Source: a virus (lineage: Duplodnaviria > Caudoviricetes). Taken from it: a DNA stretch of 40,467 bases. The notes under the pieces are model-generated. The model did no database searches, was not told the DNA's origin, and saw only the letters and a program-made list of their open reading frames with translations. Positions 4,043-36,975 of the stretch are shown here, piece by piece. Each line of letters begins with the position of its first letter. Within the stretch, counting starts at the first letter, position 1. The position numbers and the translations under genes are program-made. Location: IMG/VR virus record IMGVR_UViG_3300022930_000015, positions 1-40,467 of that record; one strand, 5' to 3'.

Positions 4043-4270
4043 ATGAAAAAGTTATATATTAATGATGATTTATTAATTCAGGTATTAGACCTAATAAAAA
4101 GCGATAACAAAGCTAGTAAATCTACATTAGCTAGTATTTTAAAAGTATCTAGGGCAACGATTGATAGGGCTATAACCAAATTAAAATTACTAGGCTATAT
4201 TAAAACTAAAAAAAGAATTGGGATCGTGGAGCAGTATCAGGTAATTAATCAGATTTTGAAAAAGGATTAA
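4043..4270 (+). CDS. Winged helix-turn-helix DNA-binding protein (Cro/repressor position)
   Basis: SKSTLASILKVSRATIDRAITKLKLLGYI is a typical wHTH; it is the first gene after the divergent promoters. Confidence 0.8.
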   Translation: MKKLYINDDLLIQVLDLIKSDNKASKSTLASILKVSRATIDRAITKLKLLGYIKTKKRIGIVEQYQVINQILKKD

Positions 4271-6488: not shown

Positions 6489-6552
6489 TTTTATATTTCC
6501 TTTGGTTTAGTGAGAAAAAATACACCACAATTGTGGTGCGAGTTAGATTTAA

Positions 6553-7389
6553 CTACTCTTGTTGATCTTTAATATTTTCAAATAATCCACATTTATGTAA
6601 ATTATCTTGGATAATACATACGCCCAAATAAGAAGTTCGGGCTTTTAAAGATATTAATTCTGCCTTTCTTTCTGTATATTCAGGATTAAAATACGATTCT
6701 CTATATAATCCAATTACATTATCTGATAAATTGATTATGCATGAATAATTAATATCAGATAAGATTGGTCTTTTATAACCTCTTTTCTGCACTTCAGAAT
6801 TAGTAGTTGCAGTTATTATTACAGGGCATTTTAAGATTTTAGCTAAATATTTTATTTCGCAATAAAATTTAGCGATTTGTTCTTCTCGACTTAAATTATC
6901 ATTTTTAAAATCAATATAATCACTACTATCAATAAAAATACAATCTATTTTATTGATATTTTTAATTTTTTCCTCTATATCATTAGAATTAATTTTTATA
7001 TCATCAATAATATAAAAAATTTTCTCAGAAATCGTGTTTATTGACTTTGATATATCTACCCATTCTGGATGGTCAATATTCCCAGTAGATAATCTCATGT
7101 GATTTATTCCAGATGCATTAGATATAATTCTATTAATCAAGGAGCTAGCATTAATTTCCCCTGATACATATACTATTGACAAATTTTGATAAAAAGACAT
7201 GTTTGTAGCTATATTTATAGCTAAAGCTGTTTTTCCAATGCCAGTTTCGCCAATTATTGTAGTTATCTCACCCTCTTTAAATCCTCCATTAATTATATCT
7301 AAATGAGTAAAACCGCTTGAGATTTTTGGAATAGTATTATCATTATCAATTTTATTAATAAAATTAATTATATTTTCTTTGGAATCCAT
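6553..7389 (-). CDS. DnaB-like helicase, C-terminal ATPase domain only
   Basis: ISSGFTHLD..NGGF, Walker A GETGIGKT, VSGE, LAKILKCPVI, RPILSD, D.VIGLYR and KAR motifs; only 278 aa, with no N-terminal DnaB domain. Confidence 0.85.
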   Translation of the reverse strand: MDSKENIINFINKIDNDNTIPKISSGFTHLDIINGGFKEGEITTIIGETGIGKTALAINIATNMSFYQNLSIVYVSGEINASSLINRIISNASGINHMRLSTGNIDHPEWVDISKSINTISEKIFYIIDDIKINSNDIEEKIKNINKIDCIFIDSSDYIDFKNDNLSREEQIAKFYCEIKYLAKILKCPVIITATTNSEVQKRGYKRPILSDINYSCIINLSDNVIGLYRESYFNPEYTERKAELISLKARTSYLGVCIIQDNLHKCGLFENIKDQQE

Positions 7390-7529: not shown

Positions 7530-7637
7530 TAGTTTTTTTAGGTATGCAAAGTAGTTTTTTTAGGTATGCAAAGTAGTTTTTTTAGGTATGCAAAGTAGTT
7601 TTTTTAGGTATGCAAAGTAGTTTTTTTAGGTATGCAA
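7530..7637 (+). repeat. Iteron array: TAGTTTTTTTAGGTATGCAAAG, four full copies plus one 20-bp copy
   Basis: Perfect head-to-tail 22-bp repeats without spacers, upstream of a Rep_3-like gene. Confidence 0.92.
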
Positions 7638-7680
7638 GAGTGCAAAAAACCTAGTAAAATCAAGGCTTGCCAGCCTAGAC

Positions 7681-7716
7681 AATATAGAGAATATAGAGAA
7701 TATATATAATATAGAC
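7681..7716 (+). repeat. AT-rich 9-mer repeats (probable origin unwinding region)
   Basis: AATATAGAG, AATATAGAG, AATATATAT, AATATAGAC in tandem next to the iterons. Confidence 0.7.
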
Positions 7717-7830
7717 AAACAAACAAGTTAAACAAAATCTCGATTAATTGAACATACAGGCGACCAATAAACATGTTTTTGTTTGTTTGTTTTTAGGTAA
7801 AAAGAATTTAAGAAGATGATTAAAAGGCAC

Positions 7831-7859
7831 TTGATTTTTAATTAATCATTAGTTACAAT
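7831..7859 (+). promoter_or_regulatory. Promoter of the rep operon
   Basis: TTGATT-17 nt-TACAAT. Confidence 0.7.
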
Positions 7860-7892
7860 TAGACATGCATTAAGCAATGTTTGTTTCTAGTT

Positions 7893-7975
7893 AAAGAAAA
7901 AGCCCATTTTAGAGATGGGCTTACAAGGAACAAGCAAGCTGTGCAACAAAGCCTTTAACCAATCCTGCACAGCAA
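7893..7975 (-). ncRNA. Putative counter-transcribed antisense RNA (about 80 nt) in the rep leader
   Basis: Minus-strand promoter at 8009-7981, hairpin GCTGTGCA/TGCACAGC, and terminator AAGCCCAT/ATGGGCTT followed by a T-run. Confidence 0.65.
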
Positions 7976-7980
7976 GGAAA

Positions 7981-8009
7981 ATTATAAATGCATAAGCAAG
8001 AAAAATCAA
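7981..8009 (-). promoter_or_regulatory. Antisense promoter in the rep leader
   Basis: TTGATT-17 nt-TATAAT on the minus strand. Confidence 0.7.
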
Positions 8010-8146
8010 TAGGGTATAAATACCAATTTACAAAAGAATGTAGCCAAATAGTTACATCAATCAAAAATCGATTTACAAAAACAAAGATTAAGAATAAATT
8101 AAAAGCTATTAATTTAACTAGCCTACAAGGGGTTAGATATGTATAG
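7988..8146 (+). CDS. Putative rep leader peptide, 52 aa (not in ORF track)
   Basis: AAGGA RBS at 7974-7978; MHKQEKSIGYKY...GVRYV*; its stop lies just past the rep ATG at 8139. Confidence 0.55.
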   Translation: MHKQEKSIGYKYQFTKECSQIVTSIKNRFTKTKIKNKLKAINLTSLQGVRYV

Positions 8147-9647
8147 TTCTACAGTTTTTCAAAAATCTAATTTTCTTATTAATTTAAAAAATCAACACAC
8201 AACTCTTGAACAAAAGTTCATTAATAATACGTTATACCATGTTTACAATATGGAAAATGCTTTAATTAATGCAGTTTATAGCAAAGAATTTATTAATATT
8301 TTGGGTAGCTATAAATCAACCCAACTAAAAGCTTATAAAATCTTTGACGGCATAATGAAAAAGCCTATGCATTTTATTGAGCCGACTGATGAAGAGTTTA
8401 ACATAGTACATATGTTCGCTAGTACAAAGCTAAGTAAACAAGAAAAATTAATATATTTTCAATTATCAGAAGAATATAAAAAGTATTGTTTTATCAAGAA
8501 CAAAAGTGATGATGAATTAATTAAACTTGGATTTACCAATTTGGACATTGAAAGTATAAATAATCTAAGTGGGAAGCACGCAATCAAAGGTTATGAGATA
8601 TTTAAGTCTGAATGTTTTGCAAGTAAAAAAATAGAAATTTGCCCAAAAGAACTGTATCAAAAATTAGGAATTGAAAGCAATTTTTATGATAGCTACTTTC
8701 AATTTAAGGCAAAATTATTAAAGCCAATGATAGAGCAAATAAATGACGTTTGCAAAGATTTTAAATTACTAAAATATGAGCCTATTAAAAATTTTGCTGG
8801 TAAAATCGTTAAAATAGAGCTTATTTGCCAAAAAATAGAGCCAAAAGAAACTACAATCTTTGCACCTAGTCAAGAAATAAAGCCAATAGCAACCCCAACA
8901 CCTAATCCAGTTGAGGCAGGAATCAACTTACCTAGCCCAGTTGCTTATATGATTAATTTAGGCGGTAAAAAAGCGGAATTAATGAGTTTTTGGAATGATG
9001 ATAAACAGGCTTATTTAACAGCATATAACGCCGTTAAATCATATAAAAAACCTGATCCATTAGTAAATCCAATAGGCTATTTTAAAAACTCTTACAACAA
9101 CATTATTCAATCAAAAGAGATTATAGTTGAAGAGGCTAAACCACAAGACCCAAAAGCCTCTTTTATATATCAAAACGATAAATATGCTGGAATACACAAA
9201 AATAATTGTGAAAATTCTTTAGGGCAAAAATACCAAACAGCCCAAGAATATAGTGAGTCTACTAAGCCAACAGAGGAAGATAAGGCTAATTTTGAGAGTC
9301 TAAAAGAGCAAGTAAAAAATAGATGGGAGGTATTGGCAGAAAATGAAAAAATTGATGTTTTAAATTCACTAGCTAAAGGTGAGAATATGCCTAAAAGTAT
9401 AATTACTTTGGCTAAACAGGCAATTGAACATAAAAAATTAGATTTTAATTATTTAAGTTCCAATGTACAATTTTTTGGATTTTTCAGCAATAGAGTAAAT
9501 GTAAAAACAGATAAATTGAAAGAGGTTTGTACAAATTCCTTACTCCAAATCCCCAATAAAACCCCCGCGAAGCCCCTGCTTGAACTAATAGAGGGCGGAT
9601 TAAGGGATTTGAACTGTGGTACTTGGACGGGGGAATTGGCTTTATGA
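8139..9647 (+). CDS. Plasmid-type replication initiator, Rep_3 family, with long C-terminal extension
   Basis: KSNFLI..LEQK, FT.LDIESINNLSGKHAIKGYE, EL..KLG...Y..FK..LLKP.IEQIN and YEPIK..G.IVKI match the Rep_3 pattern; adjacent to iterons. Confidence 0.85.
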   Translation: MYSSTVFQKSNFLINLKNQHTTLEQKFINNTLYHVYNMENALINAVYSKEFINILGSYKSTQLKAYKIFDGIMKKPMHFIEPTDEEFNIVHMFASTKLSKQEKLIYFQLSEEYKKYCFIKNKSDDELIKLGFTNLDIESINNLSGKHAIKGYEIFKSECFASKKIEICPKELYQKLGIESNFYDSYFQFKAKLLKPMIEQINDVCKDFKLLKYEPIKNFAGKIVKIELICQKIEPKETTIFAPSQEIKPIATPTPNPVEAGINLPSPVAYMINLGGKKAELMSFWNDDKQAYLTAYNAVKSYKKPDPLVNPIGYFKNSYNNIIQSKEIIVEEAKPQDPKASFIYQNDKYAGIHKNNCENSLGQKYQTAQEYSESTKPTEEDKANFESLKEQVKNRWEVLAENEKIDVLNSLAKGENMPKSIITLAKQAIEHKKLDFNYLSSNVQFFGFFSNRVNVKTDKLKEVCTNSLLQIPNKTPAKPLLELIEGGLRDLNCGTWTGELAL

Positions 9648-12265: not shown

Positions 12266-12266
12266 A

Positions 12267-13626: not shown

Positions 13627-13660
13627 GTACAAAATTATTACAAATAAATTCATATGATTG

Positions 13661-13689
13661 TTGCATTTTATGAATTTATTTCATATAAT
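13661..13689 (+). promoter_or_regulatory. Sigma70-type promoter upstream of the terminase genes
   Basis: TTGCAT-17 nt-TATAAT. Confidence 0.6.
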
Positions 13690-13719
13690 TATTTTATAAT
13701 ATATATGAAAGGGTGTAAC

Positions 13720-14250
13720 GTGGCGAAAACTAAGGCTAAACCAAAAGTTGAAGCTACGAACGAGCCTAAAAATAAAGGTGGCAGACCTACAAAATATACT
13801 AAAGATGTTGGTGATGAAATTTGTGCAAGATTAATAGCCGATGAAACTTTAAGAAGTATCTGCCAAGATGAACATATGCCAGCTAGAGGAAATATTTTTG
13901 TTTGGTTAGCCAGTTCTAATGAGATATACAAAGGCTTTCAAGACCAATACGCTCGAGCTATGGAAATTCGCCTAGATTTAATGGAGCATGATTTACTTGA
14001 TATTGCAGATGATAGTAGGCTCGATACATTAACTAAAGAGGGTAAAAACGGCGAGCTTTATGAAGTAGCAAATGGTGAGTGGGTGGGTAGGGCTAGGCTG
14101 ATGGTTGATACCCGCAAATGGATTTTATCTAAACGTCGAGCTAAAAAATATGGCGATAAAGCAGGTGAAGAAGAAAACAAAGGCAACAAGCCAATAAATA
14201 TTAATATTTACAAAGGCGATAATCCAGATGTTGAGGTTAATAACGAATAA
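13720..14250 (+). CDS. terS: Terminase small subunit (Sf6 gp1-like); probable GTG start at 13720
   Basis: GRPTKYT, ETLRSIC.DEHMP, F.DQYARA, DIADD and R.RL.VDTRKW..SK..KKYGDK motifs; AAGGG RBS. Confidence 0.9.
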   Translation: MAKTKAKPKVEATNEPKNKGGRPTKYTKDVGDEICARLIADETLRSICQDEHMPARGNIFVWLASSNEIYKGFQDQYARAMEIRLDLMEHDLLDIADDSRLDTLTKEGKNGELYEVANGEWVGRARLMVDTRKWILSKRRAKKYGDKAGEEENKGNKPININIYKGDNPDVEVNNE

Positions 14251-15666
14251 ATGAACCTACCGCATAATTGGCGACCTAGACATTATCAAAAGCCGTCATG
14301 GAACTATTTAAACAGCAAGCGGTATGATATACATTGTGAGTTAGTACACCCTAGACAGCATGGCAAAGATGATATATTACTAAATTTTGAGGTGTGTTAT
14401 GCAGTACAACATCAAGGTAGTTATTTACATTTACTACCACAGCATAACCAAGTACGCAAAGCAATATGGAGTATGATAAATCCATTTACTGGTAAGCGTA
14501 GAATAGACGAACGTATACCGCATGAGATACGTAAAAAAACTCTAGAAACTGAAATGAAAATAATACTGTTTAATGATAGCAGTATACAGTTTAGCGGTTC
14601 AGACAATTACGATGCATTGGTAGGTGGTTCGTATAATGGCGTAGGTTGGTCGGAGTGGGCTTTAAGCAACCCTAACTCTAGTAGTTATTTAGAGCCGATA
14701 TTGGATATGAACGGCGGGTATCGTGTGTATGTTACCACTCCACGTGGTCGCAATCATGCATATACCAGCTTACAACTAGCCAAAGAAAGTAAGGGCAGTT
14801 TTGGCGAAGTACTAAGTGCTTATGACTGCGGAGTTTACAGCCATGAAAAGCTAGAAACGATAAAGCAAAGATATATAGCTAGTTATGGTTATGAATATGG
14901 TACGGCTAGATTTGAACAAGAATATTTATGTTCATTCGATGCTGCGAATTTAGGTGCAATTTTAGCTAGAGATTTAACAATAGCAGAACGTGAGGGGCGT
15001 GTAGCTGATGATGTAATTTATCAAAGACAACACGGTTCTATAATAGTTAGTAGTGATTTAGGGCATAGAGATGCTAGCACATGGTGGTTTTGGCAGGTTT
15101 ATAGAGATAGTTCGGGGCAAGCAAGGCGTAAAGTAATAGACTGCTTAGACGGCTGGGGTATTAAAGCCCATGAGTGGTGCGACAAGATACAGTTAATATT
15201 AGATAAGTACAGTAATGATTTAGGTTGTATTTGGCTACCTCATGACGGCAAGGCTGAAACTGCTAGTGCTGAAAATACTTGGCAAGAAACTTTTGCACGT
15301 AAATTTGGTTGGTCTAAAGTAAAGATTGTACCAAAGACTAGTATATTTGATAGGGTAAATTGTGCTAGAACTACAGTTAGTACAGTTGAATTTAATAAAA
15401 CTAACTGCAAAAAAGGTTTAGACGGCTTAACTTCTTGGAGCTATGATTATGATGATGAAAAGAAAGACTTTAGCGATAAACCTAGACATGATTGGGCTAG
15501 TCATTACGGCGACGGATTTAGTTATGGTTGCCAAGTAATGAGGGCTGATAATAGTATATTAATACCGAGTGGCAATGAAGTATCAAGCTATAATCAAATG
15601 ACGTACAACGACTTAAAAAATAGTTATAATAATGAATACAATTATGGCAATAACCGCAGAATATGA
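14251..15666 (+). CDS. terL: Terminase large subunit
   Basis: PRHYQ Q-motif, Walker A PRQHGKD, TTPRGRN, FEQEYLCSF, nuclease DLG..D, LPHD and P.HDWASH..D.F.Y motifs. Confidence 0.95.
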   Translation: MNLPHNWRPRHYQKPSWNYLNSKRYDIHCELVHPRQHGKDDILLNFEVCYAVQHQGSYLHLLPQHNQVRKAIWSMINPFTGKRRIDERIPHEIRKKTLETEMKIILFNDSSIQFSGSDNYDALVGGSYNGVGWSEWALSNPNSSSYLEPILDMNGGYRVYVTTPRGRNHAYTSLQLAKESKGSFGEVLSAYDCGVYSHEKLETIKQRYIASYGYEYGTARFEQEYLCSFDAANLGAILARDLTIAEREGRVADDVIYQRQHGSIIVSSDLGHRDASTWWFWQVYRDSSGQARRKVIDCLDGWGIKAHEWCDKIQLILDKYSNDLGCIWLPHDGKAETASAENTWQETFARKFGWSKVKIVPKTSIFDRVNCARTTVSTVEFNKTNCKKGLDGLTSWSYDYDDEKKDFSDKPRHDWASHYGDGFSYGCQVMRADNSILIPSGNEVSSYNQMTYNDLKNSYNNEYNYGNNRRI

Positions 15667-17975
15667 TTAAAAATAAAGACAAAAAAGATAAAATCGTTAG
15701 TCGTTGGCTTACAGAAATTGAGGCCTACGAGAACGAATATTCTGCATGGGTTTCACGTTGTAAAGACATTAATAAAATCTATAAATCACAATATTACGAT
15801 AATTTAAGTGGTAATAACAGACCTAAAAATATACCAAATGAAGTAAATATATTTTGGGCTAATATTCAAACAATGATACCTGAAATTTATGCTAAATTAC
15901 CAACACCGCAAATAGAGCGTAGATTTAAAGATAGCGATGCAGTAGCTAGAGTAGCAAGCGAAGTATTAGAAAACTGTTGTAACTTTATTTTAGACTGTAG
16001 CAATGCTAATGAAGCGTTTGATATGTGTAATTTAGACGGCTTATTGTACGCTAGAGCTACTTTATGGGCTAGGTATGATGCTGATTTTAAAGGTACAGGC
16101 TATAAAGAAAAGAATGAGGACGGCGAGGACGAAGAGGTTGAGGAACTAGACAACGAGTATGTAGAGTTAGATTATGTTAATTACTGTGACTTTGGGCATA
16201 ATGTAGCCAGCACGTGGGAAGAAGTACACGCAGTTTGGCGTAAGCTTTATTTATCACGCGGGGATATAATCCAGCGTTTTGGCAAAGAAGTAGCCAAAGA
16301 CATTAAAATGGACGCTTATTCCAGTGCTAAAAATGGTTCTGTATTAAAAAAACAAGATGATAAATGCGACAGGGTTTGCGTCTATGAAGTTTGGGATAAG
16401 TACAAAAAGCGTGTAATTTGGCTTACTAAAACACACGATAAACCATTAGACATTAAAGATGATTACTTAAATTTAAAAGACTTTTTCCCTTGTCCTAGAC
16501 CTTTGTACGTAACCAAAACAAATGACTGTTTAATTCCTGTGCCTGATTATGTAATTTATCAAGACCAGCTAACAACACTTAATCGCTTAAATCAACGTAT
16601 AAATATGATCACCGAAGCTGTTAAAGTGGTAGGCTTTTATAATTCTGAAATCCCTGCTTTAGCTAATGCCTTAAGAAGTTCAACTGATAACACAATGATA
16701 GCGGTTAATGCTTGGGGAATATATGCAGAAAAAGGCGGAGCTAAGGGTAATGTTGAATGGTTACCAATACAAGAAATAGCAGGCGTACTCGAAAATCTAT
16801 ACCAAGCGTTTGAGCGTCAAAAACAAATAATCTATGAATTAACGGGCATAAGCGATTTATTAAGAGGTCAAACAGACCCTAGCGAAACAGCAACAGGGCT
16901 TACAGAAAAACGAGAGAGTGCCAAGCAAAGGTTTGTTAGTAGGCGTAATAAATTCTCTCAATTCTTACGTAATGCTATAAATATTATTGTAGAAATCGTA
17001 GCTGAAAAGTTTGACACTGATACGCTGAAAAAGATGTCAAATGTTAAGTTATTTGATACTGAAAAAGAAAAACAGCAAGCAGAACAGCAGATGCAACAGG
17101 GTTTGCAAATTGATGAAGATATGCAGGATATGCTACTTAACCCAACATGGGAAGAGGTGGCTAAATTCCTTAAAAATGATGACTTAGTAAACTTTAGAAT
17201 AGATATTGAAACAGATAGCACAATTAGAGCCGATGAACAACAAGAAAAAGCTAGCAGATTAGAAATGCTTACAAGTGTAGGCGGTTTCTTGCAACAAGCA
17301 ATGCCAGCTATTCAACAATCCCCACAATTAGCACCAGTCTTAGGCGAAATGCTATTGTATGGATTACGGGCATTTAGGGCTGGTAAAGGTATTGAAGCTG
17401 AAATGGTGGCTTTAGTAGATAATGCTAGAAAAATGGCATTACAACCACAAGAGCCTCCGCCTAATCCTGAAATGATGAAAGTTGAGGCAGAACAACAGGC
17501 TAAACAAGCACAATTACAGCTAGAACAGCAAAGATTACAGTTTGAAGCACAAACACAACAACAACAATTCCAGTTAGAAATGGCTAAATTAGAGTTAGAA
17601 AAAGCTAAGTTGGCACAAATTCCACAGGTTAAACAAATGGAATTAGAACATAATGTTTACATGGATAATTTACAGTCTCAAAGAGAAACACAAGATAAAG
17701 CATTGCAGGCACAACTAGACCAGCAAACAACTTTAAATGAACAACAACAACAAAGTTTAGATACTTTAAGAACGGCACAAATTGAGTTAGAAAAAGATAT
17801 TCAATTAAAGCAGTTAGATATTCAAATGGATAGAGAAAATCAAGATTTAGAATTATATAAAATAGATAAGCAGGAAGATACTAAAAAACAACTAGCATTA
17901 CTAAGTGCTAATACTAGTATTGAACAGGCTAAACAGTCTAATAAGAATAAAGGTAAAAATAATGCAATGCGATAA
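15663..17975 (+). CDS. Portal protein (podovirus-type, long Gln-rich C-terminal coiled coil)
   Basis: Follows terL; NIFWANIQT, FFPCPRPL, IYELTGISDLLRG and FRIDIETDS motifs; 770 aa. Confidence 0.9.
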   Translation: MIKNKDKKDKIVSRWLTEIEAYENEYSAWVSRCKDINKIYKSQYYDNLSGNNRPKNIPNEVNIFWANIQTMIPEIYAKLPTPQIERRFKDSDAVARVASEVLENCCNFILDCSNANEAFDMCNLDGLLYARATLWARYDADFKGTGYKEKNEDGEDEEVEELDNEYVELDYVNYCDFGHNVASTWEEVHAVWRKLYLSRGDIIQRFGKEVAKDIKMDAYSSAKNGSVLKKQDDKCDRVCVYEVWDKYKKRVIWLTKTHDKPLDIKDDYLNLKDFFPCPRPLYVTKTNDCLIPVPDYVIYQDQLTTLNRLNQRINMITEAVKVVGFYNSEIPALANALRSSTDNTMIAVNAWGIYAEKGGAKGNVEWLPIQEIAGVLENLYQAFERQKQIIYELTGISDLLRGQTDPSETATGLTEKRESAKQRFVSRRNKFSQFLRNAINIIVEIVAEKFDTDTLKKMSNVKLFDTEKEKQQAEQQMQQGLQIDEDMQDMLLNPTWEEVAKFLKNDDLVNFRIDIETDSTIRADEQQEKASRLEMLTSVGGFLQQAMPAIQQSPQLAPVLGEMLLYGLRAFRAGKGIEAEMVALVDNARKMALQPQEPPPNPEMMKVEAEQQAKQAQLQLEQQRLQFEAQTQQQQFQLEMAKLELEKAKLAQIPQVKQMELEHNVYMDNLQSQRETQDKALQAQLDQQTTLNEQQQQSLDTLRTAQIELEKDIQLKQLDIQMDRENQDLELYKIDKQEDTKKQLALLSANTSIEQAKQSNKNKGKNNAMR

Positions 17976-18219
17976 ATGTTTTTCTTTATATACACAACAA
18001 ACTGGTTGTTTAAGTTGTTTTAATAAAGATAATCCTTTTTATAATCCTAAATATGCACATAAAGGATTATATACGGGCTTAATGAGTAGTAGGGATATGA
18101 TAGTTGAGGCAGACTATAGCGAAAAACAATTTGCCCGTGATGTAGACAAAAGACTAGACAAATCAGTTGAGGGATTTAAAAAAATATTAGGGACTGTAAT
18201 AAGTCAAAAAGGATACTAA
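17962..18219 (+). CDS. Small protein with CxxC...CxxC motif (start reassigned to 17962)
   Basis: AAGGT RBS; MQCDKC...CLSC; lies between portal and scaffold. Confidence 0.6.
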   Translation: MQCDKCFSLYTQQTGCLSCFNKDNPFYNPKYAHKGLYTGLMSSRDMIVEADYSEKQFARDVDKRLDKSVEGFKKILGTVISQKGY

Positions 18220-18220
18220 G

Positions 18221-19330
18221 ATGAGTATAGAAAACGAAAACCAAGCATTGCCTAATGATACTACACAAGATGTAGATAATGAAGCGACCAGCCCAAGTTT
18301 TGTTGAGATTTTAAAGCAAAAAGCCGATGAAACGGCTAACGATGACACGACAGCAGATAATACACTAGATGCGACGGCGGATAGTAAAACTGCAACTACT
18401 GATAATGCACAGGGTAAAACTCCCGATGTACCTCAAACTGCGGATAATGAAACTCAAGCACCAGCAGGACAAGCTGATAACACTGTACCAACAGAAAAAA
18501 TCAGTTCTCCGCATGCTTGGAATGCGGATTTAAAGCAGGTATGGGATAAAATCCCGATTGAGGCACAAAAAGCTATATCAGAACGTGAAAAACAAATGGT
18601 TGATAAACTAAATTCAACCAGTGAAGAAGTTGGGTTTGCAAGAGAAATCAAGCAAACATTACAGCCTTATGATGATGTAATTCATGGCTTAAATTCAACG
18701 CCTAAAGAGGTTGTAAGCACATTATTACCAGTAGCGAAAGTTTTATATACTGGCTCAACTCTTGATAAATTACAGTTGATTAATCAAATAGCACAACAGC
18801 ATAATATACCGTTGCAAATGCTATTTCAACAAGATAATCAAGAGGCATTAAATCAATTACAAATGCAACATTTACAGCATCAAAATAATTTAATGCAACA
18901 AAGTAACCAGCAAATAAAGCAACAACAGCAAGGCTACCAACAAGAGTTAAATAAAAATCAATTACTATCTGTTATAGACCAATTTAGAGCAGATAAACCT
19001 GATTTTGATACTCTTAGGGGCGATATGTCTAAGCTAGTTATTGGTATAACCGCTGAAAATCCAAATATAGGCGAGCTAGAAGCTCTACAGCAGGCTTATG
19101 AACAGGCTAAATGGCTTAATCCACAGGCTAGACAACAACAAATAGATAAAGAATATGAGCAAAAAGAGAAGCAAAGAATTGAGGCAGTTAAACAAAAAAC
19201 AGCCGATAAGAAAAATGCTACTCTTAGTTTAAAAAATAGTGGTGGGCAAAATGCACCCTCAAATATCAAAGGTAAATCTTTTGAGGACATAATGAGAGAA
19301 AAAGCCCAAGCATACAACAAAAGAATTTAA
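18221..19330 (+). CDS. Capsid scaffolding protein
   Basis: Acidic disordered N-terminus, P..W...W.K.P motif and helical Gln-rich body; directly before the capsid gene. Confidence 0.8.
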   Translation: MSIENENQALPNDTTQDVDNEATSPSFVEILKQKADETANDDTTADNTLDATADSKTATTDNAQGKTPDVPQTADNETQAPAGQADNTVPTEKISSPHAWNADLKQVWDKIPIEAQKAISEREKQMVDKLNSTSEEVGFAREIKQTLQPYDDVIHGLNSTPKEVVSTLLPVAKVLYTGSTLDKLQLINQIAQQHNIPLQMLFQQDNQEALNQLQMQHLQHQNNLMQQSNQQIKQQQQGYQQELNKNQLLSVIDQFRADKPDFDTLRGDMSKLVIGITAENPNIGELEALQQAYEQAKWLNPQARQQQIDKEYEQKEKQRIEAVKQKTADKKNATLSLKNSGGQNAPSNIKGKSFEDIMREKAQAYNKRI

Positions 19331-19343
19331 AGGATAATAAAAT

Positions 19344-20327
19344 ATGCCAAGTCCAAATCCAGGCGTGAGTGAAATCACAACCAGTGCGTTGTATGATTAC
19401 TCGTCAACAATTTATGACAATATGTCAAACAACGTTCCATTTTTCCAGTTTCTAAAAGAAAAGGGAAATATGGAATTAATCGACGGCGGAGAATTTATAC
19501 GTCGAAATATTGAATACGCAGAAAATGCAGGCGGACAATTCTATAGTGGTTATGAGCTACTTAATCCAGTTCGTAGCGATGTGTTTACTGCCGTTGATTA
19601 CGAATGGAAAGAATACGCTATCCCTATCATGATGAGCGCTTTAGAAAAATTGCAAAATGCAGGTGATAGCCGCATCTTTGAATTAGCAGGGGGTAGAATG
19701 AAAAATGCAGAAAAAACTATTGCCAACCGTTTTGGTGCAGCGGTTTTTTTAGATGGCACACAAGACGGTGGACGTTCATTTATTGGTTTAGGCGGTTTAG
19801 TTCCTAATAATCCTAATAGCGGTATTGTTGGCGGTATTGACAGCTCACAATGGGCGTTTTGGCGTAATCTTGGCATTAGTGCTACTGCCTTTTTTGGTGC
19901 TGCTAAATCGGCTACAAATATAGGCCAATACTTTGACTATATGATTACTAATACAACACGTGGCGGTGATGGTATAGATTTAATTGTTGCTGGTGCGAAT
20001 GATTATGCTAAGTTACAACAATATTTATGGACTAACACTCGCTTTATGCCTGAAAGTAGCAATAAAGTAAACGGCGGTATTAGAACTATTGAATATCAAG
20101 GCATTAGAGTAATGAACGGTGGCGGTGTGGGTTCAACAATGGATCCTGATACTAGCTATTTCTTAAATTTAGACTATATTAAATTTATTACAGCAAGTAG
20201 CCGTAACTTCAAGCCAATGGAAGGTGAAAGATATTCAAATAACCAAAATGCTTGGGTTAAATATTTAGACTGGGCAGGTGCTATGATTACAACTAACAGA
20301 CGCTTACAGGGCGTTCTTTACGCTTAA
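19344..20327 (+). CDS. Major capsid protein
   Basis: 327 aa after the scaffold gene; YSGYELLN, EYEWK-like, VGGID...W.FWRN, YFLN.DY and NRRLQG motifs. Confidence 0.88.
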   Translation: MPSPNPGVSEITTSALYDYSSTIYDNMSNNVPFFQFLKEKGNMELIDGGEFIRRNIEYAENAGGQFYSGYELLNPVRSDVFTAVDYEWKEYAIPIMMSALEKLQNAGDSRIFELAGGRMKNAEKTIANRFGAAVFLDGTQDGGRSFIGLGGLVPNNPNSGIVGGIDSSQWAFWRNLGISATAFFGAAKSATNIGQYFDYMITNTTRGGDGIDLIVAGANDYAKLQQYLWTNTRFMPESSNKVNGGIRTIEYQGIRVMNGGGVGSTMDPDTSYFLNLDYIKFITASSRNFKPMEGERYSNNQNAWVKYLDWAGAMITTNRRLQGVLYA

Positions 20328-20336
20328 GGGGGCAAT

Positions 20337-21161
20337 ATGGGAATACAAGAAGGAATTTTAGGCACTTTAGCCACAAATGGAGCTGATGATAATCCGCCCT
20401 ACGGAACGGTAAACTGTGATAATCAAATTATTGCTTATACCAATGAGACATTAAAGGGCGGAGAAGCTATTTATGTTCAAGCACCAAGCACGGATATAAC
20501 AGGTCAAACTATATCAAGCATTGCAGTAACCAGTAATGTTGCATTAGTAACAACCGCTGCACCGCATGGACTTTTAGCAGGCGGGCAAGTTAAATTAATA
20601 GGTCAAACACCTAGTACATTTAGCGGTCTTTATACAATCGCAACAGTACCAAGCACTACAACATTTACAATTCCATTAGTTGTAGCCAATAGCAGTGCTA
20701 CAGTTGTTGGAACTTATACCGCTGCACCAATTACAGCAGGCCAAGTAATTGAAAATGATTACAGTGTTGTAAGCGGTGTATTTACTAAACGTGCTAGAGT
20801 TTGGGACGGTACTGTTAATACTGGTAAAAATTTAGCAGTGGCGATACGTACAGTATGGGCTAGCCAATGGTTTTGGGGTAAAGTGCAGGGCTTAACAATT
20901 GTTCAAGCTACAGGAACTATTGCAGTTGGTGCGGTTTATTATAGCGGTATTGGTGCAGTTAGAAGCACAGTTACAGCAAGTAAACAGGTATTAGGTGCTG
21001 AATTTGTATATGCTGGGGTTATTAGTAACACAGCGGGATTTAATATAATTTTCTCTGAACCTACTAAACGCAATGCTAGTAATCAAATTACATTAGCAGT
21101 AGGTGCTGGTAGAACGTTAATGTATATTAATCGTCCAATTGCACAAGGTGCTATAACTTAA
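20337..21161 (+). CDS. Probable capsid decoration/auxiliary protein with an inserted beta-domain
   Basis: Follows the capsid gene; GGEAIYVQA and W.W..VQG motifs; internal TTAAPHGL..G..V...TTFT segment. Confidence 0.65.
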   Translation: MGIQEGILGTLATNGADDNPPYGTVNCDNQIIAYTNETLKGGEAIYVQAPSTDITGQTISSIAVTSNVALVTTAAPHGLLAGGQVKLIGQTPSTFSGLYTIATVPSTTTFTIPLVVANSSATVVGTYTAAPITAGQVIENDYSVVSGVFTKRARVWDGTVNTGKNLAVAIRTVWASQWFWGKVQGLTIVQATGTIAVGAVYYSGIGAVRSTVTASKQVLGAEFVYAGVISNTAGFNIIFSEPTKRNASNQITLAVGAGRTLMYINRPIAQGAIT

Positions 21162-21166
21162 ACGAT

Positions 21167-21189
21167 AAGTGGTCTACTAGACCACTTTA
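21167..21189 (+). terminator. Hairpin terminator after the head genes
   Basis: AAGTGGTCT-act-AGACCACTT. Confidence 0.6.
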
Positions 21190-21206
21190 ACAAAGGAATA
21201 ATAAAT

Positions 21207-21824
21207 ATGCAAAATCAAAATATGCAAAATCAAATACCAATAACACAATATAGATTTTCTGTAGGTGTAAAAGAAATTGGCAACGATGATAATAAAACTT
21301 TTGAAGATGTCGATATGGTACAAGTTATCACTTTAGGCGATAAAAATTATATGCCAGTTCATGAAGTAGACCATTACCGTAGCCTAATGAAAAGAATGTT
21401 AAATAATGAATTGATACCAGCTGAACAAGCAAAAATGTTTGAAGCTCAATATAAATTATTTAAAGAGGGTGCAGATTTTCAACATGAGGGGACTTCATTA
21501 GCTACAGTAGCGGTATTTAGCAAAGCTGATGTAATAAACTTAAACAATCAAAATATATTTACTGTAGAGCAGTTGTCTGGTGTTCCTGATAGTGCTATAC
21601 ATAGTTTAGGACGTGGCATTGCTATGTTAAAACAAAAAGCAATCACATATTTAGATAGTAAAACAGATGCTAATGCTATTAATAAAGTCATACAGCAAAA
21701 TGAAATGTTAATCAATGAAAGAAATCACGATAAACAAGCACTGGCAGAAATGCAGGCACAAATACAGCAATTATTAGCACAGCAAAACGCACAAACTCAA
21801 GAAACTAAATCTAAAAGTAAATAA
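21207..21824 (+). CDS. Conserved-type phage hypothetical protein (head module)
   Basis: EGT.L, IFTVEQL..V.D motifs and C-terminal coiled coil; AAGGA RBS. Confidence 0.7.
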   Translation: MQNQNMQNQIPITQYRFSVGVKEIGNDDNKTFEDVDMVQVITLGDKNYMPVHEVDHYRSLMKRMLNNELIPAEQAKMFEAQYKLFKEGADFQHEGTSLATVAVFSKADVINLNNQNIFTVEQLSGVPDSAIHSLGRGIAMLKQKAITYLDSKTDANAINKVIQQNEMLINERNHDKQALAEMQAQIQQLLAQQNAQTQETKSKSK

Positions 21825-22750
21825 TGACATTATTAACTGTAGTACAAAATGCATGCCTAAGTTTAGGAATAAATAAGCCTAATGAAGCAGTAACTAGCTA
21901 TGATAAGCAAATATTAAAGCTCGTAGCTTATGCAAATAAGGGTGGTAAGGAAATAATACGCTATCCAGCTAAAGATGCGGGGTGGAGCTTTTTACGCAAG
22001 TCATTTAGTTTTAATAGTTATTTTTTACAAGTAACCGCTAGCACTACTTTAGGCAGTAATATTTTAACTTTAGCTGACACTACAGGTATTATAGTTGGAT
22101 ATGGCGTTACAGGCTTAAATATACCAGCCTATGCTATAGTTACAGCAGTTACGCCAACTACAGTGACATTGGGTAATATTCAAAATGCAACAGCTACAGG
22201 CAGTAGTACATATACTTTTAGTCAAATAAGTTATGATTTACCAGTTGATTATTCTAGTCTAATACCAAACACGTACTTTCCCTTAAATAATACGCAGTGG
22301 TATTCATGGCAGATTACACCAGCACAAGCACAATGGATAAAAGCACGTAATGGCTTATATGCTGGTTTTTCTAATAGATTTATGATACAAAGTAAATCAA
22401 TTATTTTAGACCCATACCCGCAAAGCGTTAACCCATATAGTTTACTGTATCGCTCAAATGCTTATGTGATAGACGGCGAAAATCAGAATTATAAAACTGA
22501 ATTTACTAAAGATGTAGATACTACTTTGATTGATGAAGAATTATTAACTGAAAGTCTTATTTGGCGGTTCAAAGCTGATAGAGGCTTACCTTATGATGAA
22601 GATTATAATATTTATGAAAATCATCTAAGCCAATTAGCAGGTGAGGACGGCGGAGGCGGACAAGATATTATTATGGGTAGTGATTATCTATTAAATGACT
22701 ATTATGGTTTAAATATCGCTGAGGGTAGCTGGGGTTATTATGGTGGTTAG
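21824..22750 (+). CDS. Probable head-to-tail adaptor (tail tubular protein A-like)
   Basis: MTLLTVVQ..C, W..L, YDLP.DY, F..D.DT..IDEELL....WRFK...GL.Y pattern; position in module. Confidence 0.7.
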   Translation: MTLLTVVQNACLSLGINKPNEAVTSYDKQILKLVAYANKGGKEIIRYPAKDAGWSFLRKSFSFNSYFLQVTASTTLGSNILTLADTTGIIVGYGVTGLNIPAYAIVTAVTPTTVTLGNIQNATATGSSTYTFSQISYDLPVDYSSLIPNTYFPLNNTQWYSWQITPAQAQWIKARNGLYAGFSNRFMIQSKSIILDPYPQSVNPYSLLYRSNAYVIDGENQNYKTEFTKDVDTTLIDEELLTESLIWRFKADRGLPYDEDYNIYENHLSQLAGEDGGGGQDIIMGSDYLLNDYYGLNIAEGSWGYYGG

Positions 22751-24299
22751 AAGCGGATATAAACCTATAAGCCCTAGACAAATAAATAGAAGCGGTAATT
22801 CTAGGAGTGCTAGTTTGCCAGTTCCAAATAAAGGCTTAAATAGTAGAGATAATATCGCTAATTTAAAACCTGAATATGCCTCTAAGTTAATTAATTGGTT
22901 TCCGACCACATCAGATTTAATGGTTAGAAACGGTTATAAAGAGTACAGTTTAGATATAACAGGTCAAGTAAATAGCTTAATGGGCTATAACGGACTTAGT
23001 AAAAAGATGTTTGCAGTAGCAGGGGATATAATTTATGATGCAACCGCTAGCGGAAGTGCTACAGTTAGCTATACACCAGTTGCTAGTGATAAATTTATAT
23101 CTCAAAATATAACTACTAGCGGAGGTACTTTTTTAGTTGCAGTTAATGGCGTAGATGATTTATTACTTTATGACGGTACTACATGGACGCCAATAAACGG
23201 GGCTAGCACACCAGCTATAACAGGGGTTACAACTGCTAATTTAAGCTATGTAACTTTAGCTAAACGCCGTCTTTGGTTCGTAGAAAAATCTACTACCAAA
23301 GCATGGTATTTAGATGTAAATTCTATTGGCGGAGTTGCGAAAAGCTTGGATTTAGGGGCGTCTTTTATTAAAGGCGGATATTTAAAAGCTATTAGTTCAT
23401 GGAGTATTACGGGCGGATTTGGCACTCAAGATTTAACCGTATTTCTAAGCACTGAGGGTGATATAGTAGTTTATCAAGGCGACGACCCTGATACAGCTAG
23501 CGATTGGAAAATAGCAGGAATATATAACTTAGGCTCGCCTATTGGACATATGCCGTTTTGCAGGCTTGGAACTGATTTATTAGTGCTTACACAACAAGGA
23601 TTATCTGCACTTAGTCAAGGTCAATTCTTTGCAGATACTGCTAGGGCAAAAACTGCTTTAACTGATAATATAGCACCTGATATTAACCGAGATACTACAA
23701 GTTACGCATTAAATTATGGCTGGCAAACGATAGCATATCCTAATGAAAATATGTTACTTCTTAATATTCCCGTAGCAGTTGGACAGCAAAAACAGTATGT
23801 AATGAATACGATTACAGGGGCATGGGCTGAATTTAATCAGATATATGCAAATTGTTTTTTACTTTTTGATGAAGTCATGTATTTTGGGGGAGCTGGTAAA
23901 ACATTTACATTTTGGCAAAACACTACAGATAATAGTGCAGTAATTAATGCAGAAGTCATTACATCATTTAATCAATTTGGAACGCCAGCAGAAAAAGCTT
24001 TTAAATTAGCTAGACTTACTTTAAGTACATATTCTACTAATCAAGTAAATGTAGGCATAGAATTAAATTATAAAATTACTAATCAATTAAGTACGCCAAC
24101 TTTACCAAATACAGGCGATGGAATATGGGACGAGGCAACTTGGGATAGTAATGTATGGGCTGGCGAAGATTTTATTTCTGATTGGTTTGATATAGACGGC
24201 ATGGGATTTGCAGGCGCTTTACATATAAAAGTAGCTTGCCGTGAGCCGTTTAGGTGGGCGAATACTCAATATATTTATCAAGTTGGGAATACTTTTTAA
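22740..24299 (+). CDS. Tail nozzle / packaged-DNA stabilisation protein (P22 gp10-like)
   Basis: P.P..GLNSRD, KRRLWFVE...T.AWYL, Y.G.DP and QYVMNT.TGAW motifs; beta-propeller-like composition. Confidence 0.8.
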   Translation: MVVRSGYKPISPRQINRSGNSRSASLPVPNKGLNSRDNIANLKPEYASKLINWFPTTSDLMVRNGYKEYSLDITGQVNSLMGYNGLSKKMFAVAGDIIYDATASGSATVSYTPVASDKFISQNITTSGGTFLVAVNGVDDLLLYDGTTWTPINGASTPAITGVTTANLSYVTLAKRRLWFVEKSTTKAWYLDVNSIGGVAKSLDLGASFIKGGYLKAISSWSITGGFGTQDLTVFLSTEGDIVVYQGDDPDTASDWKIAGIYNLGSPIGHMPFCRLGTDLLVLTQQGLSALSQGQFFADTARAKTALTDNIAPDINRDTTSYALNYGWQTIAYPNENMLLLNIPVAVGQQKQYVMNTITGAWAEFNQIYANCFLLFDEVMYFGGAGKTFTFWQNTTDNSAVINAEVITSFNQFGTPAEKAFKLARLTLSTYSTNQVNVGIELNYKITNQLSTPTLPNTGDGIWDEATWDSNVWAGEDFISDWFDIDGMGFAGALHIKVACREPFRWANTQYIYQVGNTF

Positions 24300-24703
24300 T
24301 GTTGCAAATCATCTTTGGACAAGATTTAAGAGTAGGCACATGGGTTTTTGAAAAAACTGGCGGATTGTATACTAAAAAAGACAGTACAACAATTGGCTTA
24401 GAAAAAAATGGCGAGTTAGTAGCAGGTTTTGTTTATAATAATTATATTCCCAATCGTTCTATCGCCATGCATGTAGCTGGTAATTTATTTACCAAAAAAT
24501 TTATAAAGGCAGGCTTTAGATACCCATTTAAGCAATTAAAAGTATTAAAAACCATAGCATTTATTGATAGTACAAATATTAAAAGTGTTAAATTTACATC
24601 AAAACTAGGTGCTATACATGAAGCTACGATTAAAGATGCGGGTAGGCATGGCGATTTGTTAATATACACAATGACACAAGAACAATTTAGATTTAAGGAT
24701 TAA
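24299..24703 (+). CDS. GNAT-fold acetyltransferase-like protein (start reassigned to 24299)
   Basis: F.YPF.QL, N.KS..F..KLG...E pattern; typical position after the nozzle gene; TAATG overlap. Confidence 0.75.
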   Translation: MLQIIFGQDLRVGTWVFEKTGGLYTKKDSTTIGLEKNGELVAGFVYNNYIPNRSIAMHVAGNLFTKKFIKAGFRYPFKQLKVLKTIAFIDSTNIKSVKFTSKLGAIHEATIKDAGRHGDLLIYTMTQEQFRFKD

Positions 24704-24706
24704 CTA

Positions 24707-25192
24707 ATGGGTAATTTATATAAAAAAGCTCAACAACCGCAAGGAATGAGCCAGCCTACACAGCCAATGTACCCTACTAATAGTAGTTCAAACTGGGCAG
24801 ATAATCAATATGCACAGCAATTAGGAAAATATAATCAAGAATTACCACAGTGGCAAATGAAGCAGGATAGCATTAGACAGTTACAAACACAGCAACAACA
24901 AGCTATGCAACAAGCACAGAATATGCAGTTACAACAACAAGCTAATATGAATAGGCAAAGGAATGGAAGTACACAAATTCCACAAGTCGTGATTGATAGA
25001 CGTATGGCTAATCCTAATCAATATACAAACAACTTGCAACAGTACCAAAATAGGCAACTACAACAAGCACAAAATACGCCATATACTCAATTTAGTCAAA
25101 ATGGCTATAATCCTGTTTTGCGTACAACACCACAGCAAAGTAATGGCTTAAGCAATAGTTTATTAGCTGAACTTTTAAAGAAAAAAGGATAA
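24707..25192 (+). CDS. Gln-rich low-complexity protein, possible internal virion protein
   Basis: AAGGA RBS; Q/N/P-rich; lies in the ejection-protein cluster. Confidence 0.6.
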   Translation: MGNLYKKAQQPQGMSQPTQPMYPTNSSSNWADNQYAQQLGKYNQELPQWQMKQDSIRQLQTQQQQAMQQAQNMQLQQQANMNRQRNGSTQIPQVVIDRRMANPNQYTNNLQQYQNRQLQQAQNTPYTQFSQNGYNPVLRTTPQQSNGLSNSLLAELLKKKG

Positions 25193-25193
25193 T

Positions 25194-26123
25194 ATGGGTA
25201 AATCATCATCAGCGCCAGAAGCACCAGACCCATATATGGTACAAGATGCTAACTTTCAAGGGCAAGTAAAAGCAAGTAATTATAATGCTGCAAGCAGACC
25301 TAGTGTTTTTACTCCTTACGGTTCACAAACCTATGAGCAATATGGTTACGACCCTACAACAGGAGCGCCTCTTTATAATGAATTTATAGACTTATCGCCA
25401 ACAGCTCAAAGAACTGTAGACCAAAATATACAAAATCAATATGATACTTCAGTTACTGCTAATAAATTTTTAAAGAATGCGGAAAGCAGTTTATCTAATC
25501 CAATAAATACCAGTGATTTAAATTATCAAACTAGTTTAAATACTGGTGGTAATGCTGAATTGTCTAAAAAAGCCCAAGACGCTATTTATGGTAAACAAAC
25601 TGCACTATTAGACCCGCAATATCAGCAGAACCAAGATGCTTTAAATACAAGATTGGCTAATCAAGGTATAAATATAGGTAGTGAAGCTTATGATAGAGAA
25701 ATGAATAATTTTGCTAGGCAGAAAGATTATGCATATGGTAATGCTAGAAATGACAGTATTTTAGGCGGTATTCAATATGAAAACCAATTATTTAACCAAA
25801 GCGGACAGGAACAACAAGCATATAACAATGCTATAAGTGCAGAATTAAACAAACGTTTTGCTGGCAATAATCAAGCCTTAAACCAATATACGGCACTTGC
25901 CAGCGGTTCACAGGTTCAGACACCACAATTTGCTAACCAACCTATACAAAATGTTCAACCAACAGATATGAGCCAATTATTCCAAAACCAATATAATAGC
26001 CAATTAGCGGGATATAACGCAGATGTTGCAGGTGGTAATTCTTTATTGGGCGGAGTATTTGGCTTAGGTTCGGCGGCTCTAGGTTCACCAGTGGGTACAT
26101 TTGCTAAACTTTTTGGAGGTTAA
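25194..26123 (+). CDS. Probable DNA ejection (internal virion) protein
   Basis: MGKSSSAP.APDP start, TPYGS, LANQGI..GSEAY and hydrophobic Gly-rich C-terminus. Confidence 0.7.
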   Translation: MGKSSSAPEAPDPYMVQDANFQGQVKASNYNAASRPSVFTPYGSQTYEQYGYDPTTGAPLYNEFIDLSPTAQRTVDQNIQNQYDTSVTANKFLKNAESSLSNPINTSDLNYQTSLNTGGNAELSKKAQDAIYGKQTALLDPQYQQNQDALNTRLANQGINIGSEAYDREMNNFARQKDYAYGNARNDSILGGIQYENQLFNQSGQEQQAYNNAISAELNKRFAGNNQALNQYTALASGSQVQTPQFANQPIQNVQPTDMSQLFQNQYNSQLAGYNADVAGGNSLLGGVFGLGSAALGSPVGTFAKLFGG

Positions 26124-26126
26124 ATA

Positions 26127-29779: not shown

Positions 29780-29782
29780 ATT

Positions 29783-30601
29783 ATGAGCGACCCAGTATTC
29801 AATAAACCAATTCCGCAAGGAATAGAAAGCACAGTAGGTTACTATCTTGTGACTACTGCTTTTACAGGCGGAGTTTTAAACGATGTTTTAGAGAAAAAAA
29901 TAGCAGTAGATTTGAGTAAATCAAGTCAAACTGAAAGCAAAGCAACATTACTTGGCGTATATTACGTTAATTTAACGCAAGGTACATTACTTCAAGATAG
30001 CGAAGTATTAGCGGGTAATATTACATATATTGGAGGCAGTGCAAGCGGAGGCGGAAGTAGTGGAACTGCCCAATTTGTAAGGATTACGGACGGAACTAAT
30101 AATTTAGGGTTGGGTAGTACAGCTGTAGGTACAGCACCAAGCAATACAATTCTTGGTGGAACTGTTTATAATTCAGGAACTCAAACCTTAACTAATGGGC
30201 AAACTATAGCGGTTCAATGCGATGTCAACGGCAAAGCATTAGTAAGTATTCAAAAAAGTATATTCCCAGTTACCCAGCATCAAAGTTTAGCTTTAACTAA
30301 TACAGCGGTTTCAGTAAAAGCAACTAGCGGTCAACTTTTTGGCTTTAACTTTGTAAACCAATCAGCAACGGTTGCATATGTTAAATTTTATAATATAGTA
30401 AGTGGAAGCGTAACAGTTGGTACAAGTGCAGTAGCAAAAAAAGTCATAGTACCAGCTACAGGCAGTCTTTTTATACCAGTACAAATAATGATACAGCATA
30501 ATTTTACAACAGCTATTAGTATGGCGGCGACACTAAATTATATTGATACTGATAATACAGCACCAACAAATACAATTTATGCAGATGTTTATTACAATTA
30601 A
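29783..30601 (+). CDS. Probable virion structural protein (beta-sandwich C-terminus)
   Basis: VKATSGQLFG....N......YVKFYN pattern; N-terminal domain shared with 13078..13626. Confidence 0.65.
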   Translation: MSDPVFNKPIPQGIESTVGYYLVTTAFTGGVLNDVLEKKIAVDLSKSSQTESKATLLGVYYVNLTQGTLLQDSEVLAGNITYIGGSASGGGSSGTAQFVRITDGTNNLGLGSTAVGTAPSNTILGGTVYNSGTQTLTNGQTIAVQCDVNGKALVSIQKSIFPVTQHQSLALTNTAVSVKATSGQLFGFNFVNQSATVAYVKFYNIVSGSVTVGTSAVAKKVIVPATGSLFIPVQIMIQHNFTTAISMAATLNYIDTDNTAPTNTIYADVYYN

Positions 30602-30609
30602 AGGAATAT

Positions 30610-36339: not shown

Positions 36340-36975
36340 ATGAAAAAGAATGAACTAATTTCTATAGAAAGTTTGAGAATGACGAGTTTAGAAATTGCCG
36401 AGCTTACAAATAAAGAGCATTTTCATGTATTAAGAGATATTGAAAAAATGTGTAGTGATTTAGAAATAGATGTGCAATTATTTGGAGACATCTATTTAGA
36501 TAAATACAAGAGGAAACAAAAGCTTTATGAACTGCCAAAACGTGAAACTTTAATTTTAGTATCAGGTTATAGTATACAATTAAGAGCTAAAATAATTGAT
36601 AAATGGCAATTTCTAGAAAAAGAACTACAAACACGCCAAGCATTAAAATTAGAATATCCATCATACCAAGATGCAATTAAATACGCCATAGAAAATAGCG
36701 ATAGTGCTAATTATAAGAAGTTTGGATTTACCCAAGAAAATAATTTAATTTACGTTATAGCATTAGGAATGAATGCCAAGAAATTTAGAGAAATACACGG
36801 CTTACAAGAAAAGCAATCAATAAGACCATATATTACAACAGAACAGGCGGAAGCAGTCCTTGAACTGCAAGCTATGAATGCTACATTTTTAAAAATAGGC
36901 ATGGAATACGATGACCGCAAATTACAATTAAAAAAGTATTTTGACGCTAAATATAAAGCCAAACAAATGCACTAA
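36340..36975 (+). CDS. Rha-family phage regulatory protein
   Basis: MTSLEIAELT.K.H.HVLRDI, Y.LPKRE.LILVSGYS..LRAKIIDKW..LE motifs. Confidence 0.9.
   Translation: MKKNELISIESLRMTSLEIAELTNKEHFHVLRDIEKMCSDLEIDVQLFGDIYLDKYKRKQKLYELPKRETLILVSGYSIQLRAKIIDKWQFLEKELQTRQALKLEYPSYQDAIKYAIENSDSANYKKFGFTQENNLIYVIALGMNAKKFREIHGLQEKQSIRPYITTEQAEAVLELQAMNATFLKIGMEYDDRKLQLKKYFDAKYKAKQMH

Follow-up and report, generated by a model that had tools for sequence, protein, structure and literature searches.

The 40,467-bp virus record IMGVR_UViG_3300022930_000015, analysed here over its whole length and referred to below as the window, combines the virion genes of a podovirus-like phage with a plasmid-type replication cassette: a Rep_3 initiator gene (rep), an array of 22-bp repeats upstream of it and, between repeats and rep, a control module that an earlier reading of this DNA (the initial annotation) overlooked. 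Our analysis suggests that the phage probably persists as a plasmid prophage by way of this iteron-type cassette, and the prediction is that an antisense RNA limits its copy number through a leader open reading frame (ORF) coupled to rep. We favour this reading because feedback of this kind suits stable maintenance, no integrase was found in the window, antirepressor-type genes are present, and one relative carries a lead to a second replication system. The initial annotation had also proposed a plasmid-persisting prophage; the replicon, the podovirus module and the lack of an integrase hold up, and the plasmid state itself is deduced from sequence.

The initiator gene (8139..9647, plus strand) encodes a 502-aa Rep with both domains of its family, Rep3_N (WH1) at aa 8-156 (E 5.9e-6; 27.2 bits, Pfam cut-off 22.4) and Rep3_C (WH2) at aa 171-228 (E 8.9e-7; 29.5 bits, cut-off 21.1), so that the Rep_3-like call of the initial annotation passed a direct check. 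Profile searches covered 60 ORFs of the window (Pfam and PHROGs) and 24 further small ORFs (Pfam); the other ~270 aa of Rep, including its C-terminal extension, matched no family. Among 72,556 plasmid records (PLSDB) and 50,697 phage records (INPHARED), Rep found weak matches in 17 plasmids and in no phage, with an identity of only 24-38% to any plasmid Rep. Three relatives were found, the complete phages G001 and G002 and a 1,447-bp contig, L008; capsid and exonuclease scans of IMG/VR yielded no further close ones (8/9 and 6/7 loci were distant). WH1 and WH2 exceed the curated cut-offs in G001 and G002 too, and the G002 Rep matched 306 of the plasmid records and again none of the phage records. 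The last 173 aa of the window Rep (aa 330-502, encoded by 9126-9647) are 95% identical in G001; this segment co-occurs with an invariant block at 7728-7796, and G002 is without both. Against 1.84 billion representatives, the C-terminal part retrieved only itself, the G001 protein and two repeat-like matches, while its atlas leads all lay below 0.9. Sequence searches of the PDB made in the course of the analysis gave no match, and its single-sequence AlphaFold models (pLDDT 32 and 44) were too low in confidence for use.

Upstream of rep lie five tandem 22-bp repeats (7530..7639, plus strand), with exact copies at 7530, 7552, 7574 and 7596 and a fifth (7618-7639) carrying two mismatches; no further copy with fewer than six mismatches occurs on either strand of the window. 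They are followed by AT-rich repeats of 9-nt period (7676..7712), a candidate unwinding element judging by the layout of iteron origins, and by an inverted pair (7710-7726 and 7779-7795; 17 nt, 88%). These repeats, 9-mers and inverted pair had all been described in the initial annotation and are as it stated. The arrangement, with tandem ~22-bp repeats and an AT-rich region adjoining rep and specific to it, is that of a Rep_3 iteron replicon. No DnaA box was found in the origin with a relaxed pattern; such boxes are common in Rep_3 iteron origins, not universal. The GC-skew minimum at 7299 coincides with the point where gene direction switches and was not counted as evidence.

A near-invariant block of ~69 bp (7728..7796) is common to three alleles with different iterons and absent from G002. 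Within it are the inverted pair's right arm and the partial iteron noted in the initial annotation (10 nt at 7790); from this partial iteron it is ~30 bp downstream to the predicted -35 box of the rep promoter. The partial iteron was considered as an allele-specific autorepression operator and rejected: the spot is kept, with one substitution, in two relatives that have other iterons, and because of this and its distance from the -35 box it is probably not such an operator. Its presence near the promoter is confirmed.

The best available evidence that the repeats belong to Rep comes from the relatives, in which repeats and Rep N-terminus change together in all four alleles. G001 (39,837 bp; rep locus L001) has 21-bp repeats of a different unit, and the N-terminal Rep_3 half of its Rep was not aligned to that of the window by BLAST; L008 has a third repeat type (22 bp) and a third Rep start. 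G002 (39,023 bp with terminal repeats) covers 74% of the window at 72-98% identity, including an identical portal and large terminase, and replaces window 6526-9644 with a 244-aa Rep_3, its own three 22-bp repeats (locus L019) and a leftward pair of genes for 207-aa and 210-aa proteins. Comparison of the repeat units between alleles gives agreement at only 10-13 of 21-22 positions, and the N-terminus of the window Rep has 9-25% identity to those of the others. Since the window and G002 share a 96% identical small winged helix-turn-helix (wHTH) regulator yet differ in their repeats, the repeats track Rep and not this regulator. We therefore regard them as the likely cognate iterons of Rep, carried in a swappable cassette. 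One intact copy of the window iteron stands upstream of L008's own array (L008 1048-1068), and such a single leftover suggests that window-type iterons were replaced in the L008 and L001 lineages. A degenerate copy is also seen upstream of the different array of G001 (L001 7148-7170).

The ~430 bp from origin to rep are conserved in the window, G001 and L008 (3/4 alleles) and absent from G002, where the stretch from iterons to rep instead contains three short GCTACG repeats along with an imperfect inverted repeat (L019 8990-9090). On the plus strand, a predicted sigma-70-type promoter at 7831..7859 (score 9/12; hexamers 11/12 conserved, spacer 5/17) would give rise to the leader-rep transcript. 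On the minus strand, a second predicted promoter at 7981..8009 (score 10/12, the best of 7380-8200 and conserved in L001 and L008) overlaps the start of the leader and faces a predicted antisense RNA of ~80 nt (7893..7974, ends approximate), in which a variable-loop hairpin (7938-7973) is followed by a terminator hairpin (7900-7922) with a U-run. The leader ORF (7988..8146, plus strand; 52 codons) stops 8 nt into rep, and a small mRNA hairpin over the rep Shine-Dalgarno (SD) sequence (8118..8136, plus strand) appears in the minimum-free-energy and centroid structures of all three alleles. The convergent promoter-like sites, both kept in all three alleles, thus frame what is predicted to be a short terminated countertranscript, and the leader overlaps the start of rep. 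By analogy, the region between iterons and rep has the CopA/tap anatomy of plasmid R1, placed on an iteron Rep_3 origin.

Several features of this module give it the appearance of being under selection in the three alleles. Of the three occurrences of a strict promoter pattern in the window, two are the convergent pair; terminator-like sites number 2 against 0.2 expected. The two-hairpin fold of the antisense RNA has z scores of -3.0, -4.7 and -4.0 in the three alleles, and the stem of hairpin 1 is retained despite differences in sequence, length and loop. The leader, of 52, 48 and 51 aa, differs by in-frame indels of 3 and 12 nt and ends at the same offset with three different codons (TAG, TGA, TAA), in a frame in which 13-16% of triplets are stops; it stayed stop-free in only 33-59 of 5000 shuffles. 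No known family accounts for the module: Rfam gave no match in 81,751 bases, whether to CopA or to other known antisense RNA families, and the spacer between origin and rep had no real match in plasmids (best E 0.1).

Taken together, these features suggest how the cassette might work. Rep would bind the 22-bp repeats and open the adjoining AT-rich DNA. The transcript from the 7831 promoter would pass through the two hairpins, the leader and rep, rep being translated only if ribosomes reach the end of the leader and so melt the hairpin that covers the rep ribosome-binding site. Transcribed from the 8009 promoter, the countertranscript would increase with copy number, pair with the hairpins beside the leader start and block leader translation, giving negative feedback. 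Without Par, inheritance would depend on several copies per cell; mycobacteriophage origins are reported to replicate without parABS, some of them then gaining stability as copy number rises (PMC7157519). For lytic amplification, the window and G001 would rely on the same Rep, released from its control, and G002 on a separate pair of lambda-P-like type. That one Rep may serve both states in the window and G001 is speculative, and is put forward because both are without a second initiator and have a long Rep with the control module.

In G002 the leftward 207-aa/210-aa pair lies behind an 11/12 promoter, and the 210-aa protein resembles lambda P family clusters (ESM Atlas 0.93, 194/256 features; PF06992 in 32% of the top atlas cluster, structure score below the bar). 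A Rep_3 together with this lambda-P-like lead is as expected, by analogy, of a two-replicon phage-plasmid. The slot of the pair is occupied in the window by a gene for a DnaB C-terminal-domain helicase identified by Pfam (6553..7389, minus strand), divergent from rep and absent from both G001 and G002; it encodes the C-terminal ATPase domain only, with Walker A intact, at 25% GC.

That the replicon belongs to a complete phage is clear from the rest of the genome. A packaging and virion module of the Mx8/Pr podovirus type extends over 13654..32310 (plus strand), recognised by profile and BLAST matches and by tubular tail B, the marker of ejectosome podoviruses according to PMC10386132. It comprises small terminase, portal (15663-17975), capsid (19344-20327), tube A-like (21824-22750) and tube B-like (22740-24299) genes and internal virion proteins. 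The capsid passes the NF033394 cut-off and is 24-41% identical to those of Mx8, Brucella Tb/Pr and allied phages (best 40 of 52 matches); the tube B-like ORF is 32% identical to the tubular tail B protein of phiGT1 and is followed by candidate internal virion proteins, with no tape measure or sheath in the module. The podovirus-like character given in the initial annotation is well founded on these matches, and complete virion and lysis genes stand together with a plasmid initiator, as in phage-plasmids. The record is also a full circle, as the initial annotation had it: the first 50 nt recur at 40334, both window ends map onto one unbroken stretch of G002, and CheckV completeness is 100%. IMG/VR classes the record as linear, probably by reason of a short indel near the end of the 134-nt end overlap (40334-40467), relative to the window start.

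Possible signs of a temperate life are also present. A Rha-family regulator (36340..36975, plus strand) occupies the slot held in G002 by an AntA/AntB antirepressor, and one or the other occurs in all three complete genomes; such genes are read as temperate markers. A small wHTH regulator (4043..4270, plus strand), a candidate repressor between divergent promoters, is likewise present in all three. At its gene, divergent promoter-like sites and three TGTACA palindromes (3900-4045) mark a possible immunity region without CI; TGTACA is not enriched genome-wide (10 against 10.9).

A number of observations weigh against plasmid persistence or against parts of the proposed scheme. ParA and ParB were each absent from the three complete genomes in six-frame searches, as were HTH_3 repressors (0/3, both P22-type control records being positive), leaving the small wHTH as the one repressor candidate. 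Toxin-antitoxin (TA) families were missing among the ORFs scanned, and the CI family among those of the window. No host or cellular contig was found for the phage: a genome-collection scan with leader alignment gave a single 15-aa match, taken as chance, matches to Rep and DnaB are spread across scattered taxa, and cluster look-ups led to metagenome proteins only. The lambda-P-like lead of G002 drew no support from BLAST, Pfam or PHROG, searches with its 207-aa neighbour gave no assignment, and the L008 Rep fragment (125 aa) had no Pfam match. As regards the control module, the strict promoter pattern was drawn up after the sites had been seen, and promoter-like sites are not locally enriched (6 against 4.2 +/- 2.1). 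The sense strand has a fold about as good as that of the antisense strand, covariation in the terminator falls short of significance (1 two-sided change, 158/500 shuffles, only three sequences), and the SD hairpin is weak, with regional z scores of only -2.4, +1.0 and -1.3. L001 and L008 are near-identical over part of the module, which leaves only two or three independent versions. Finally, no second initiator is recognisable in either the window or G001, so that Rep_3 must, or may, serve lytic growth.

This last point leads to the alternative that survives best, which we nonetheless consider unlikely: the iteron replicon is real but is used for lytic (or induced) replication alone, in a phage that is virulent or was once temperate, and its antisense/leader module either times Rep synthesis or is left over from a donor plasmid. 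A precedent exists in SGI1, whose Rep_3, likewise accompanied by iterons and a leader peptide, supports replication on induction and not constitutively (PMC7826253). The absence of Par, TA and CI from all three genomes fits this alternative, as do the lack of another initiator in two of them, the lambdoid gene order (rep, then nin-like and late genes) and the source of all three complete records, a virus-contig collection. It accounts less well for a module with apparent signs of selection in three alleles, as negative feedback mainly suits steady-state maintenance, for the retention of Rep_3 in G002 next to a second replication lead, and for Rha or antirepressor genes in every complete genome.

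Integration by an unrecognised or host recombinase, with the Rep_3 origin used only when the phage is excised, appears improbable. There are precedents: an integrase and attP exist in F116, a phage with a reported plasmid state, and phiC725A occurs in integrated as well as episomal form (PMC5217972); homologues of plasmid replicases are encoded by D3 and phiSG1, for which a plasmid state is unproven (PMC7969092), and two P22-type records deposited as plasmids carry integrases. However, six-frame searches for tyrosine integrases (PF00589) and serine resolvases (PF00239) were negative in all three complete genomes, both P22-type control records being positive for PF00589, and the statement of the initial annotation that no integrase is recognisable thereby holds up to profile searches. 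The window also has no tRNA gene, and a dif core matches it at chance level (4 against 4.7). An integrase is in any case not required of a phage-plasmid. Very improbable, in our judgement, is a plasmid state controlled by iterons alone, with the hairpins and short ORF forming an attenuator, a primer-assembly signal or a chance structure: G002 does have iterons and Rep_3 without the module, and the Rfam, sense-strand and covariation results agree with it, but a conserved minus-strand promoter aims at a minus-strand U-tailed terminator ~80 nt off, and rep genes that are unrelated to each other retain the overlap with the leader.

Beyond the plasmid prophage that we favour, a wider picture can be offered tentatively, and it may well claim too much. 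The window and its relatives might represent a lineage of 39-40-kb podovirus phage-plasmids without integrase, Par or CI, in which a previously undescribed antisense RNA and a leader peptide set Rep_3 output and, through it, plasmid copy number as well as the change to run-away lytic growth; iterons and the DNA-binding half of Rep would swap around the constant module to escape incompatibility with resident siblings.

The genomes also differ elsewhere. G001 and the window have early genes up to 99-100% identical and different podovirus head-tail modules, P22-like (L001/G001 12964-18581) and Mx8/Pr-like (window 13654-32310), respectively. Their recombination sets also differ, with ERF/YqaJ in G001 and Sak4/SSB/Gp157 in the window, where Pfam and PHROG scans additionally identified the DnaB C-terminal domain, small wHTH and Rha discussed above and an M15 endolysin. 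In the window, the Q-position gene and the terminase are separated by three leftward ORFs of low GC content (23%; 11805-12734), identical in G002 and absent from G001; they had no family match beyond phrog_27481, and the 74-aa product of one (12053-12277) is ribbon-helix-helix-like by eye, a possible addiction or defence moron. G001 also has a weak Tad2-like (anti-Thoeris) Pfam match below the cut-off (L005 9169-9663, E 4e-4).

Short-tailed phage-plasmids are scarce, and crAssphage is short-tailed in morphology. A phage-plasmid life has been argued for crAssphage (PMC10983915). Few phage-plasmids are Podoviridae according to PMC7969092, which also lists the F116 community; F116 was reported as a plasmid yet possesses an integrase (PMC5217972). 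A Tritonibacter element of 42 kb has a long tail, ParAB and TA (PMC10090143), glacier elements were defined by Par/TA genes (PMC4490671), and in the available text of the review PMC11652158 neither 'podo' nor 'iteron' occurs. The window capsid matched 1 of the 72,556 plasmid records, a 3.2-Mb replicon; the G001 coat matched 13, and the two examined carry integrases. The initial annotation called a podovirus-like phage-plasmid of this size notable; its rarity is borne out by the capsid counts, its novelty is not, given the Podoviridae cases on record, and podovirus phage-plasmids are accordingly rare, not new.

Control by iterons and control by antisense RNA are mostly described as alternatives, and here both, the antisense part as a prediction, stand on one origin inside a phage. 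Every element of this scheme has precedent, from exchangeable antisense/leader modules (PMC5304414) to Rep_3 with iterons and a leader (PMC7826253). A phage with an iteron Rep_3 under antisense/leader control did not appear in literature searches limited to open-licence PMC and bioRxiv; subscription papers and supplements (including the Pfeifer tables) may hold cases. The four natural alleles provide a ready set for studying Rep-iteron specificity, incompatibility and RNA control, and the module may represent a new small-RNA family and could supply orthogonal replicons. If maintenance without Par or CI is real, screens would tend to class such phages as lytic.

Compared with known systems, the virion is closest to Mx8/Pr-clade podoviruses (Mx8, Brucella Tb/Pr, 45A6 and, for the tail, phiGT1), with tube B identities of up to 34% beside the capsid matches given above, whereas the Reps of the window and G002 match no INPHARED phage. 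With P1, N15, SSU5, the F116 community and Carjivirus communis the lineage shares a phage genome with a plasmid initiator and, in G002, a P1-like two-replicon logic; it differs from them in having no Par, TA or CI, in its size of 39-40 kb, in its Mx8/Pr- or P22-type short-tail modules and in its predicted RNA copy control. Like iteron Rep_3 theta replicons (PF01051 and PF21205; for example, Acinetobacter RepM plasmids), it has a WH1-WH2 initiator and tandem 21-22-bp repeats with an AT-rich stretch upstream of rep, and unlike them a Rep of 24-38% identity with a ~270-aa C-terminal part, no DnaA box found, the antisense/leader module and a phage setting. The Rep of plasmid R1 (IncFII) belongs to another family than Rep_3, and the window shows neither an Rfam match nor a CopB-like gene. 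The CopA RNA of R1 prevents tap from being translated, and repA is coupled to tap (PMC12361487); the window is predicted to resemble R1, with an antisense RNA that precedes a leader ORF to which translation of rep is coupled. The R1 origin lies downstream of repA, however, while that of the window is an upstream iteron array. The SGI1/IncN2-N3 replicon likewise combines Rep_3 and iterons with a coupled leader peptide and with a hairpin that covers the rep start, as demonstrated experimentally (PMC7826253), but SGI1 is an integrative element with an activator-controlled origin downstream of rep, and the word 'antisense' is absent from the available text of that paper. The REx-C/REx-R exchangeable modules of Pseudomonas plasmids (RepJ, RepA-PFP, pRA2) place a stem-loop/antisense/leader control module on unrelated rep genes, with potential iterons upstream of such stem-loops in pRA2 (PMC5304414); in the window lineage, by contrast, the module stays constant between two replaced parts, the iterons on its left and the Rep N-terminus on its right, and does so within a phage.

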